A stretch of DNA of 64,000 bases, taken from positions 110,112,001 through 110,176,000 of the forward strand of contig OX597823.1 in NCBI GenBank assembly GCA_951406725.2, read 5' to 3'. This DNA comes from Octopus vulgaris (Eukaryota). The position numbers and the translations under genes are program-made. Shown here one piece after another: positions 13,590 to 25,150 of this stretch (position 1 is the stretch's first letter; each line of letters begins with the position of its first letter). The notes beneath the pieces were generated by a model. That model was not told where the DNA came from. It made no database searches and saw only the letters and a program-made list of their open reading frames with translations.

Positions 13590-14000
13590 TTGAGGAAAAT
13601 GTTAGAATTCTTAGTAAAAGAATGTGGAGTTAGGAGATGTGGAACATGCAACAACATCAATTTCAAATACTTAGAAAATGGTTCTCATATAAAATTCAAG
13701 AGCGGATCCCTTTTGAAAATAAATGCAGATATGAACTGCAAAGCGCAAAACTTCATACACTGCATTACCTGCCCAAACTTCAAAGAAAATTACATTGGCG
13801 AAACAAATAATTCCCTCTGTCATCTTGCAAGAATCCACAGGCAACATATCCGACAAAAGATTCCATTAAGCAAACGTCTGGAAATACGCAGAGACGGAAA
13901 ATTCAAAATTTTTCCCTTTTAGAAATGCGCATGGGACGATCTGCAATACCGAAAAGCAATGGAACTGCATTTCATCAAAAAATTCTCTCCAAAATTGAAC
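13590..14000 (+). mobile_element. Penelope-like GIY-YIG endonuclease fragment (pseudogene)
   Basis: ORF 13590..13922 reads C-GVRRCGTC linker, 'NCKAQNFIHCITCPNFKENYIGET...RIHRQHIR', 'FKIFPF'. After a frameshift it continues 'ELHFIKKFSPKLN', the typical PLE endonuclease end. Confidence 0.8.
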
Positions 14001-14497: not shown

Positions 14498-16817
14498 CAG
14501 ATGGGATGATAACAAAAAAATGTATTGTCTACTACCCAGACGAATTGTGCTGTACTAAACTAAATCGAGTACGCAGAATATGAATCTGAACTCAGAATTG
14601 CTATAGCATGTCAGGATCTTGAGTTATGCGCATAATTATATCTTGATACTATATTAGAATCAGGAATAGTTAAGTTCAAGGTAAATCATTTTTATAATTA
14701 TTATAATTATATATTAGTACTGTTTATAGTAAATTTATGTTCAAGGCAAATGGTATTATAATATAACGGTACATAGTATATTTATGTTAAGGGAATACTC
14801 AGTTTATTTTTGATATGCTCATCTCAGAAATGTTTGAGAAACTTACTCTTGCGCCTATGTGTTGTGCTGGTCTGCCGTTGTAGGAACCAGCAGTAGTCAC
14901 CCACCATGCGTGGATTGAATCCGCCTTGATACCTTATTTCCATCTCAGATATGTCCTGGTGATATCTCTCAGCATGCTCATCACCAAGGGAAGCACAATT
15001 TGTTGGAAAAAATCGGTCAGAATGCAAGAAGTGCATTTTAAGGGACATTTGGCAACCCATTCTTTCATACGCTGTTAGCATGTTGTTTAGTAAATCAGCA
15101 TAGTTTTCAGCACTGTGATTTCCAAGAAATTTCTGTGCCACTAACACGAATGAATCGCATACCATCCGTTCAAGTGGATTCCGTTTACCTCTAAATTTGC
15201 TATCAGATATCAATTCTCTGATATTGGGTCCACTGAAAATGCCTGCTTTCAGTTTTCCGTCACTTTTCTCTACACCAAATTTTACTTTTAAGTACTGGAA
15301 ACCACCACCATTGTATGTCATTGCTTCTACAAAGTTTTTCCTGAGGCCACGTTTGATGTGAAGGGGTGGAAGGGAGATCTTTCCAGGGTAATGATTGATG
15401 TCGTAGGGGTTGCTCCAAACACACAAGAAGCACATAGTTTTGCTATATCCCAGCTGCAGTCCTAGGAGGAGGGAAATCACCTTTAAATCACCACAGACAG
15501 ATATTCCACTTATGTACTGAGTGATTAACTCCTTTTCAGAATGAGTTCTCTCGATCCATAAGTTTCTTCCATACCGAAAACAACCACATGAATGGAAGGT
15601 TTTTCCATAACCGTTATGTGACAACACAGCTTTGAGGCAAAGCTTACTCGGGTCTATGAACAATCTTCATTCGTTAACCACATGCACGTGTCCTACATGA
15701 GTGCATTAACGTCAGTACAGAAACAAGCATTATGTTCTTGCTTCAAAAAGACGGACAAACCTTTATGGCGAGAACGGAAAATGGAAATTTTCGTACCTTG
15801 CTGTTGGAGATTCCGTTCTTGTATAGGTCCGTTGTTGTGATTTGGATCCCAAAACTTCTCTCCCTTTGGACAATGCTTGGGGGAGAATCAGGGGGTTCAT
15901 CGTGCGCCGTGTCAAGTTTTCAAGTGAAATATGTGAGAGGGGAACAGCGACAGTGTTCTCGAAGTCATGTGGGACCGGTTTTAGAGCCGACTTACAATCT
16001 GCATACACAATTTTTGCTTTGCTCTTCTTCGAGAAACCACTAATATTAGTCATGCAGAAATAACACTCAGAGACATGATTGGCTGGCTCACGTCATACCA
16101 TTGGTACAGCAAAAGGCATTACTTTCTGTTTTCCATTCAGCCACTATGTAAACCCTAAGTAATACCCGGGGTAGCATTTATGATGTGCCCACCTGTTGTC
16201 TTGGTCCTCAACTTTACACCCAAATAGCTGGCTGTGGAAAGAGATAGAGGAAAAGTGGAATTGTTTCGTACAAACACACGCATATATGTATATATATGTA
16301 TAGGCGGTTTTTAATTTGTTGGCAATTTTCTTCCGCTGGTCACGTGGAGCACACTTTCCACAGACATAATATAAATTGCCTGGGTGATTTACACAGCTTC
16401 TCCTATTCATGATCTAACACAATAAACACAGATAAAACAGTAATCACACAGAGCGAGAGATACGCATACCACACGTGACAGCAGCGCAGACCGAGAGTTA
16501 CCAAGAACAAACTGACGTACTTGGCATTGCACACAAGACATCAGAGCCATCTAAAGCTAAACTAAATAATGAACTTTCTTATTGTTTGTTTTATTGCAGT
16601 TATTTCTTTAATTCTGAATTAAGATCGCTTTCATTTTAGCAAATTTTATAATGTGGCCTATATCTAACCGAAAGCATAGTTATAAATCTTGCACATGCAT
16701 ATAGCTCAAGATCCAGCCGTGCTAGAACAATTCTGAGTGCGGATTCGGAATCAGCATCCTCGATTTAGTCTAAAACACATGCTTTTATTCCAGTAGCAAA
16801 ATCCTTGTTGTCCAGTG
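14498..16817 (-). mobile_element. Chapaev3-like (CMC superfamily) DNA transposon, near full length, with disrupted transposase
   Basis: Imperfect TIRs of ~120 bp (14500-14635 vs 16697-16817; shared core ctaaatcgag..gaatc..actcagaattg..tagca..ggatcttgag). The right end reads CACTGG on the minus strand and is flanked by TAA. The left end (taa-cag) is eroded. Transposase fragments lie in between. Confidence 0.8.
14824..16410 (-). pseudogene. Chapaev3-type DDE transposase, frameshifted into at least 3 pieces
   Basis: N-terminal 'RSCVNHPGNLYYVCG...FGCKVEDQDNRWAHHKC'. Middle 'IVYADCKSALKPVPH'. Catalytic part 'LFIDPSK..LKAVLSHNG', 'CGDLKVISLLLGLQLGYSKTMCFLC', 'LPPLHIKRG', 'MSLKMHFLHS', 'DEHAERYHQDISEMEIRYQG', 'DYCWFLQR'. 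Confidence 0.85.
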
Positions 16818-23710: not shown

Positions 23711-23783
<73 letters not shown>

Positions 23784-23891
23784 GTTCAGCAAAAATTTAG
23801 ATTCAGATGAATATGGTACTTAAGTTAAAGGCACCAGAATTTGGTATGGTATTATCCATATAAATCGAATTTAATTTTAAAAAATTTGATA

Positions 23892-23979
23892 TGTGGCTGA
23901 AGAGTGCTCTACATTTTAAAACTGCTGTAATACTTACATTGTTTAATTAAAAGAAGTAGCATGAAACGATTTTACTACG
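23892..23979 (+). ncRNA. Degenerate type I hammerhead ribozyme-like motif
   Basis: tgtgg-CTGAAGA-gtgc(tc)tac...gtagcat-GAAA-cgatt-TTA-ctacg. Stem I tgtgg/ctacg pairs using G-U wobbles. Stem III is broken. Confidence 0.4.
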
Positions 23980-24040
23980 CTACCTTAGGATATCCTTGTT
24001 GTTTATTTGGATATATATATATATTGAGGTAGTAATTGTG

Positions 24041-24121
24041 CACGGCTGAAGAAGGCCAGAGACACACATTATGCATTGTTATAAATCCGTCTAATAAAGG
24101 CCCGAAACATATGTACCGCTG
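24041..24121 (+). ncRNA. Type I hammerhead ribozyme-like motif with a long stem-II insert
   Basis: cacgg-CTGAAGA(24046-24052)-aggcc...ggccc-GAAAC(24104-24108)-atat-GTA(24113-24115)-ccgctg. Stem I is cgg/ccg plus ca/tg. Stem III is the palindrome acatatgt. Confidence 0.65.
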
Positions 24122-24148
24122 AATCCTTGGCATCAAGTTTTTATTTTG

Positions 24149-24201
<53 letters not shown>

Positions 24202-24206
<5 letters not shown>

Positions 24207-24690
24207 ATTTTCTCCTCACAAAGAACAAGTGAGGGTTCAGTAAAGTAAGGCGTTAATCATGTTCTATGGACACGAATGTGTCTCCTGAGGCCTGCCGGTG
24301 CCTTGCAATCCCTTTTGGCAAATGGAACAAGTTGACGACTCAGTTTGCCTGAGTGCTTATGTATCATTCAATATGTTTTCCTGTGTGGCCAGCAAGGCCT
24401 GCTTTGCTTCGTGCACAAAAACGACAATGACAGGTAAAGTTTCCATTTCGAGAAGCAGCGTTTTTCCAGCGTGTCTTTATGTTTGCACGAACTTCGCCCC
24501 GATGATGGAATCGACTTTGCTCAAATCTTTGAACTGAGGAGAAGCAAGACTGGCTTCAGGTCCTGTGTTCTGATACTTCGTTTTCCCAGGAAGAAAAGAG
24601 ACATTTGCATCGCTTCAGATTGACTTTTAGTTTGTCTCTGAAGTGCGAGAATGGCCTTCCAACTGACCTTCCTGTTGGAAATTGGCCAAA
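24202..24690 (-). mobile_element. RTE-BovB-like LINE 3' end (ORF C-terminus with two C2H2-like fingers), decayed
   Basis: 'GRPFSHFRDKLKVNLKRC...SSWENEVSEHRT*' (cf. GRP..RYKD.LK..LK...WE..A.DR..W), then 'CHCRFCARSKAGLAGH' and 'CSICQK/DCKAPAGLRRHIRVH' across a frameshift. Confidence 0.7.
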
Positions 24691-24729
24691 GAGAAATTAC
24701 ACACGCACATACAGACACACATATGTGTA

Positions 24730-25150
24730 TATTGTTGTTGGAATCCTTTTGTTTCGGGAGACAATGGAGTTGCGCATAAACTAATGCAGTCTGGTTTTTA
24801 CATTGTCCTCTCCAACTTCCTCTCCAGTTTTGCGCAGGCCTGGGCTAGATGTAAGAAAATCCTAGGTAACCCAATCGTCAGGATTCCTCTATCGACCTTG
24901 CTGACGTAGTCCAAAGGAGTGCAGAGCATTACGTTTGGCACCAGCCTGGTTGAAGGATCTGCCGGAATAGTGTCGAGTCGAACACTAAACCGCCTACGGG
25001 GCTCCACACCGGATTTCTTTGAAGGTTGTCTCCTTTCTGTAATCCTGGATAGCGGCCTATACCGGGTACTGTCAACCGGAGCCAGCTGAGCCCGGCAAAC
25101 ATGTCAGGTAGGGTCGTCACTCTCTGAAGTACTGAAGAAAATCGCTACCC
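24730..25150 (-). mobile_element. GC-rich non-coding interspersed element with (CAA)n-like tail, probable non-autonomous retroposon
   Basis: Roughly 50% GC island of 420 bp bounded by TA/CA microsatellites. The minus strand ends ...ggattccaacaacaat. No recognisable ORF. Confidence 0.5.

Follow-up and report, generated by a model that had tools for sequence, protein, structure and literature searches.

Type I hammerhead ribozymes near the 3′ end of Penelope-like elements (PLEs) have been described for the Hydra clade (Craig et al. 2021, PMC8557442). In the available parts of that source, the clade is defined by the motifs DKT and CxCX5C, by CxxC and CxH around E and N and by the absence of CCHH. 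Its members have a GIY-YIG endonuclease at the C-terminus, target (TA)n and have tandem or inverted ends with a tail, and the base of helix II in their hammerheads is often non-pairing (U.U in most of the Hydra magnipapillata rows). The octopus sequences reported here, assigned to two families termed A and B, are alike in these features. One octopus family, Hydra-1_Obim, is included in the clade, with a hammerhead of a 7-bp stem and an 8-nt loop; the family B protein is visibly unlike the Hydra-1_Obim fragment when the two are compared by eye, unaligned. The main differences are in size. Loop 2 is 3-10 nt long in the Hydra clade, whereas 51 and 59 nt separate the boxes here, and the unit is below 3 kb there and 4.7 kb here. 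As far as File S2 of the same source shows, loops of about 30-35 nt are found only in two plant PLE-X elements, marked as deviating.

The motifs also resemble the minimal type I hammerheads that PLEs carry in metazoans (Cervera and de la Pena 2014, PMC4209133, available in part), with a short stem I, a palindromic helix III and predicted action as dimers, and with mostly single motifs in truncated copies and inverted pairs 100-700 bp apart. A helix II called larger than usual in that study has 6-8 bp, as has the long helix II of PMC13725137 in its available parts, compared with about 40-65 nt and 15-20 predicted pairs here, and the G10.1-C11.1 pair, highly conserved in that set, was present in 12 of the 34 families sampled here. 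With the metazoan non-LTR retrozymes (Cervera and de la Pena 2020, PMC7229834; Li et al. 2026, bioRxiv 10.64898/2026.07.22.740005; both available in part) our sequences share type I hammerheads, an arrangement on one strand and a link to PLEs. Such retrozymes are, however, tandem repeats of one ORF-less unit, each with a hammerhead, whereas the cassette reported here consists of two different units that each terminate an element with an ORF and are joined only once. In the green anole element Poseidon (Frangieh et al. 2024, PMC11167929, available in part) insertions run through an uncut hammerhead, with two preferred downstream end regions (a short end and the tail) and AT-rich targets, as here; Poseidon belongs to a different clade, its ORF starts inside the hammerhead and not 196 nt after the predicted cut, and its helix II is described as canonical where ours is long. 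Hydra-element hammerheads, a Hydra family from octopus, the targeting of (TA)n and inverted ends have all been described before. A literature search of incomplete coverage, in which longer arms may have been missed, gave no description of animal PLEs with a helix II of 40-65 nt or of how widespread such a form is, nor of cephalopod hammerheads.

The window, i.e. the whole 64-kb stretch of Octopus vulgaris DNA analysed here, contained two CTGAAGA cores at 23897 and 24046, found by direct reading and by a scan of both strands. Their distance of 149 nt agrees with the 150 nt or so of the original prediction, and no other CTGANGA...GAAA core on either strand of the window has 4 or more pairs in helix II. 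Both motifs have the CUGANGA and GAAA boxes, an NUH site and their ends in stem I, as expected of type I. The region was first described as a single (TA)n-flanked cassette. The flanks are there, but a further (AT)7 run divides the cassette into two repeats, the family A portion (23779-24011) and the family B portion (24024-24156), as listed in Table 1.

Table 1. Features of the cassette and its flanks, in positions of the window. Family assignments and cut sites are predictions.
Feature	Position	Strand	Details
(TA)n tract, left flank, target microsatellite	23749..23782	.	
Family A, inverted 3′ extension (tail), putative left arm of a tandem/inverted Penelope-like insertion	23779..23869	-	similarity to the tails of L080 and L093
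Family A, 5′-truncated 3′ end (pLTR) of a putative decayed Hydra-type Penelope-like family	23868..24011	+	best copies 94%
Hammerhead A	23892..23979	+	stem I 23892-23896/23975-23979; core 23897-23903; helix II 23904-23962 (59 nt); GAAA 23963-23966; predicted cut after 23974
(AT)7 run separating the two probable insertions	24011..24024	.	boundary between two match classes
Family B, 5′-truncated 3′ end (pLTR) of a putative young autonomous Hydra-clade Penelope-like element	24024..24156	+	97.7% to many copies
Hammerhead B	24043..24118	+	stem I 24043-24045/24116-24118 (4 bp in family copies); core 24046-24052; helix II 24053-24103 (51 nt); GAAA 24104-24107; palindromic helix III ACATATGT 24107-24114; GUA ending 24115; predicted cut after 24115
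(TA)n tract, right flank	24157..24201	.	

A similarity search of the octopus genome (2.8 Gb, 227 contigs) with 23783-24156 as the query, in which 40 of 3,182 candidates were scored, found the query in at least 54 places. Only the window covered it in full; the other 53 matches fell in query positions 1-243 (family A) or approximately 224-374 (family B) and none spanned both halves. In the whole genome the exact hammerhead pattern of family A occurred in 905 places and that of family B in 1,461, with none for either reversed-pattern control, and the two motifs are therefore not due to chance. The A pattern followed by the B pattern at a spacing of 60-90 nt had one match in 2.8 Gb, the window itself, so the cassette is a multicopy repeat in its halves but single-copy as a joined unit. 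BLASTN of A against B gave no similarity beyond words of 7-10 nt, and in a forced global alignment with 26 gaps 75 of the 105 aligned positions were identical, which makes A and B distant relatives at most. Both families prefer (TA)n and end in it, and the microsatellite association first proposed thus holds for each. The cassette very probably represents the hammerhead-bearing 3′ ends of two Hydra-type Penelope-like families that were likely inserted separately into one (TA)n tract, and the locus itself is ordinary transposon debris.

In hammerhead B, the palindromic stem III, the GUA triplet and the ggcc/ggcc stem II of the original prediction were all read in place, with GGCC/GGCC closing 41 nt and an A.C at the base of helix II. 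The stem I pairing cacgg/ccg-c-tg is likewise present in the window, but its bulge reflects a G>A mutation at 24042 by which the window copy has a shortened form of the GCGG/CCGC stem of the family. The A.C mismatch had been proposed as a possible cause of reduced activity. All of family B shares it, and helix II has an unpaired base position in 12 of the 34 families sampled and in published Hydra motifs as well, so the mismatch is no defect of the window copy; an axolotl motif with U.U at this position still cuts (PMC7229834, available in part). Helix III is self-palindromic in family B at 8/8 positions and in family A also at 8/8, with two G.U pairs, in line with the predicted type I hammerheads of Penelope-like character. 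In the window copy of A this palindrome is broken by T23972, as noticed at the outset. The family has G at this position (most copies, and the dominant base in all four sequencing runs compared), and the T replacement is common to 3 of 46 distinct A sequences. The A triplet is UUA in the window and GUA in the family.

With flanks of 7 nt, the hammerhead fold was the MFE structure in the family B copy L023 and lay 1.1 to 1.3 kcal/mol above the MFE in the other B subfamily and in family A. The corresponding difference was 1.8 kcal/mol in window B and 5.9 kcal/mol in window A. With wider flanks the B MFE was not the hammerhead in unconstrained folding, as a competing hairpin wins, and whole motifs were no better folded than shuffles (z +0.75 to +1.04). 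Hammerhead B of the window would be weakened, and hammerhead A, with its broken helix III, is likely inactive. The duplex energies of the 8-nt helix III strands were −7.0 kcal/mol for B-B and −5.8 kcal/mol for A-A, compared with 0.0 (family) or +0.9 kcal/mol (window) for A-B. An A-B heterodimer was rejected on the grounds that the palindromes pair with themselves and do not pair A with B, and neither an A-B dimer nor a circle would be expected at the locus.

Copies of family B run upstream through an AT-rich region of approximately 2 kb into a GIY-YIG domain. A search with the B protein gave 131 matches, several in frames of 818-850 aa, and open frames of 842 aa with RT and endonuclease were found in four (L065, L068, L069, L070) of 14 stretches fetched, 13 of which contained the B-end sequence. 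Read by eye in L065, L068 and L073, the protein shows DKT and CxCX5C, a CxxC ahead of the conserved E, a CxH following the N and no CCHH; a single Cys lies between the GIY and YIG positions, and the N-terminal motif is RWA where the Hydra clade has RWK (PMC8557442, available in part). The single ORF has the order of the Hydra clade, RT and C-terminal GIY-YIG, in B and also in the remnants of A, and the (TA)n preference, the hammerhead in the pLTR and the tandem or inverted ends with a tail are further features of this clade. Neptune or Naiad parentage was rejected, as the endonuclease motifs differ. Pfam had no match for the C-terminal part of the B protein and, for the full ORF, one sub-threshold unrelated match with no RT or GIY-YIG, and a PDB search gave no matches; the Atlas clusters were HTH_animal, GIY-YIG and RVT_1 at 0.95-0.98. 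By these motifs, read by eye, B is assigned to an autonomous Penelope-like element of the Hydra clade, whose 3′ end it represents.

A direct upstream pLTR in the order hammerhead, tail and start codon was found in L068 and L136-L140, and L243 contains a complete unit with an inverted hammerhead, a direct 5′ hammerhead, the ORF (one frameshift) and a 3′ hammerhead. The distance in L243 is 4,684 nt from cut to cut and 196 nt from cut to ATG. From this layout, the tail of B is the 5′ UTR of the next unit. The family is young, with intact ORFs and complete pLTR-ORF-pLTR copies, and the window holds the last 133 nt of the element, ending 41 nt past the predicted cut. Two further arrangements of family B sequence were seen. 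A full copy in L069 (2500-2560 and 6900-6950) starts at its 5′ end at the short motif where the 3′ end stops, and is thus of unit length but permuted to about 40 nt past the cut site. At another locus (L155/L156, G000:C4:23559085-23559838), units of approximately 245 nt form tandem and inverted repeats, starting 3-5 nt upstream of the predicted cut and extending into the beginning of the ORF.

The cassette opens with 90 nt that match, as reverse complement, the tail of family A itself; a plus copy truncated at the 5′ end comes next, and this tandem/inverted arrangement is known from Penelope-like elements. The inverted tail is 93% identical to the tail of L080 (minus strand) and up to 100% to that of L093, and in L080, L093 and L103 the tail is located downstream of the hammerhead. 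Longer A copies reach upstream RT and GIY-YIG remnants (L133, L126, L130), in which the RT is 53-65% identical to that of family B, and CxCX5C was also found in the A endonuclease (L122, L129, L133). No intact A reading frame was present in any of the 20 loci fetched. A is thus assigned, from these remnants, to a related but decayed family of Hydra type. Beside one family A copy (L120:2917-5247, oriented) lies a 777-aa ORF with cadherin repeats, similar to a protocadherin.

The ends of the insertions were compared with the cut sites. Of 79 B placements, 33 reach (TA)n at 22-54 nt past the cut and 20 at 102-125 nt; the remainder comprised 12 that end elsewhere up to 200 nt and 14 without (TA)n within 320 nt. 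None of the 79 ended at the cut site, and none of the insertions at 30 loci began there, with the loci picked by best score in part in the former case and throughout in the latter, which disfavours copies stopping at the cut. The genomic ends therefore give no sign of cleavage. Over the B pLTR, the contigs of the sequencing runs, which are uninformative on expression and cleavage, showed neither joints nor an accumulation of ends. A single loose end, in run X3, was presumably a library adapter.

In the anole PLE, uncut RNA is the main substrate, cleavage needs protein and is dispensable for insertion, and RT initiates at two internal sites of the RNA (PMC11167929, available in part); the genomic ends of B fit this pattern by analogy, with uncut RNA copied and two end regions. 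We propose that the element endonuclease would nick (TA)n and that RT would copy the element RNA from a position downstream of the predicted cut, at a distance of 20-55 or about 100-125 nt, mostly stopping early and leaving short ends with an intact motif. In a full tandem element each pLTR would contain a hammerhead, with 196 nt to the start codon. Hammerheads in copies of the same family would pair via the palindromic helix III and cut slowly, likely assisted by protein, giving the 4.7-kb unit RNA. Dimer cleavage within a family may hence process tandem transcripts, while insertions would be copied from uncut RNA, and the long helix II would likely serve as a selected structural arm. PLE hammerheads are described as cutting weakly and as dimers (PMC4209133; review PMC6765202; both available in part). 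For viral hammerheads a role of cleavage in translation has been reported (PMC13725137, available in part), and such a role could be taken here as a lead only. Family B offers a direct system for studying how dimers cleave, whether protein assists and what part the arm plays in the Hydra clade, on which the literature consulted contained no biochemical work, and bears on the question of what hammerheads contribute to Penelope-like elements.

Neither motif of the window has a helix II of 4-8 bp with a short loop, and the 51 and 59 nt found instead are a variant feature. The original prediction saw oversized AU-rich loops in stem II. The size is family-wide, but the supposed loops fold as long irregular hairpins. 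That standard models would miss them was borne out by Rfam, which had no match in the window at the gathering score and, at E≤10, 15 weak matches around the cassette, none of them a hammerhead. In the whole genome, the pattern CTGANGA-N40-66-GAAAC-N4-GTH had 38,124 matches, approximately one per 75 kb, compared with 1,498 for the control, and the same pattern with 10-39 nt between the boxes had 17,970 compared with 1,475. The counts cover only hammerheads with C15.2-G16.2 and a loop III of 4 nt, both being set in the pattern. Long arms account for about 36,600 matches above control, or about 69% of the above-control excess, and as Rfam missed this arm in both cases in the window, the number of ribozymes in such genomes has likely been greatly underestimated.

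The first 74 long-arm matches listed represented 72 distinct places, grouped by an ad hoc threshold into 34 families in which chance matches are included. Loop III was a strict palindrome, of 11 kinds, in 23 of the 34 families (shuffled 3.9 ± 1.8, maximum 11 in 10,000), and stem I had at least 4 bp in 16 (shuffled 0.9). The arm was closed by at least 4 pairs in 26 families (3.8 expected). Its folding had a mean z of −1.8, with 15 families below −2, and trimming gave a mean z of −1.2 ± 0.24 (8 nt off each side) or −0.95 (10 nt). RNAalifold on 14 A-like sequences recovered stem I and the long helix II; pairing held in 90% of cells, and both sides had changed in 10 of the 27 pairs, two of them in the distal hairpin. 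These sequences are related, were picked by similarity and were scored on a structure derived from the same alignment, so the two-sided changes are supportive and no proof. Covariation of stems I-III was found across the 34 families and in the A-like sequences, while the copies of family B are too alike for such a test on their own. These comparisons show a long helix II that is fixed in families A and B and in most genomic hammerheads of the pattern class.

What the arm does is a separate matter. It is quite possible, if short of our favoured expectation, that a long helix II is merely tolerated, as a neutral expansion of an AT-rich loop without a function of its own, or that long-arm motifs no longer cut. 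Arm length (42-65 nt among family representatives) and sequence vary widely, short-arm families thrive in the same genome, the arms of 11 of the 34 families have a z above −1 and no genomic end marks a cut. However, core, stem I and the loop III palindrome covary across families, the inner arm is more structured than shuffles and two-sided changes occur in the A-like families. We put forward, as a speculation rather unlikely to hold in its entirety, that selection maintains the 40-65-nt helix II as a functional arm in a hammerhead subtype dominating the genome with dozens of families, as a binding platform for the protein of the element or a translation element for the uncapped unit RNA that cleavage 196 nt ahead of the ORF would yield, and that because of this arm current models overlook most Hydra-type ribozymes in such genomes.

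An ORF could be tied to three hammerhead families, namely A, B and the 39-nt-arm family of L239; there was no ORF between the same-strand long-arm pairs in L236 and L237. L239 (G000:C1:8128200-8133900) is a Hydra-type element with RWK and a frameshifted ORF, and its two ends each carry a hammerhead, with 4,842 nt between them. The most frequent long-arm family in the first 72 places has 17 members with a 53-55-nt arm and a GUC site (among them L069:8962 on the minus strand, L166, L188, L236 and L241), for which a parent ORF was not found. L233 (G000:C1:5010500-5013200) contains a near-identical 534-bp tandem array with three 50-nt-arm hammerheads on the minus strand; it had no match to the PLE proteins tried and is a candidate for a proper retrozyme.

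The origin of the cassette may be considered against this background. Neighbouring hammerheads of unlike long-arm families, less than 500 nt apart on one strand, occurred in at least two cases among the first 74 matches listed (C1:1710572/1711019 and C1:4011976/4012351). The latter (L214) has a B end, (TA)n and the hammerhead of a third family, 375 nt apart on one strand, in the same layout as the cassette. We consider it unlikely that A and B derive from one event, in which a Hydra RT switched template between B and A RNA, in either order, at a single nick. The halves do lie on one strand, 14 nt of (AT)n apart, and belong to related families, Penelope-like insertions are often complex, and the relative ages are indistinguishable at the locus from the identity to copies (94% to the best copy for the A plus part, 99-100% for the A inverted tail and 97.7% for B). 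Against this, the decayed ORFs of A in 20 of 20 loci and the intact 842-aa frames of B suggest different periods of activity, and the (AT)n spacer is the remnant expected of a nested insertion into the target.

The originally proposed non-autonomous retrozyme of approximately 390 bp, whose two hammerheads would act as a dimer and release circular RNA, is suggested by the two type I motifs 149 nt apart on one strand between (TA)n runs and by the existence of tandem hammerhead arrays in this genome, but is almost certainly wrong and was rejected, given that the A-B unit occurs once, that no tandem repeat crosses the cassette in a repeat scan of the window, that A and B are unlike and no repeats of each other, that their helix III strands are incompatible with that of A broken, and that each half leads into the RT-endonuclease ORF of its own family. 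Two separate insertions into one (TA)n tract are thus preferred. Contigs of the sequencing runs did not bridge the locus, and relatives of A and B were present in runs of three organism codes.

Other features were seen in the window, where Pfam had nothing for 20 ORFs. A fragment of a GIY-YIG endonuclease of Neptune/Naiad type with a CX2-5CxxC linker lies at 13614-13871 on the plus strand (tblastn E 3e-20 to a similar fragment in L048). A 280-aa open frame at 14824-15666 on the minus strand, without a Pfam match, resembles a remnant of a DNA transposase. Adjoining the cassette at 24202-25140, a further multicopy repeat lies between TA runs and has a match in L029.
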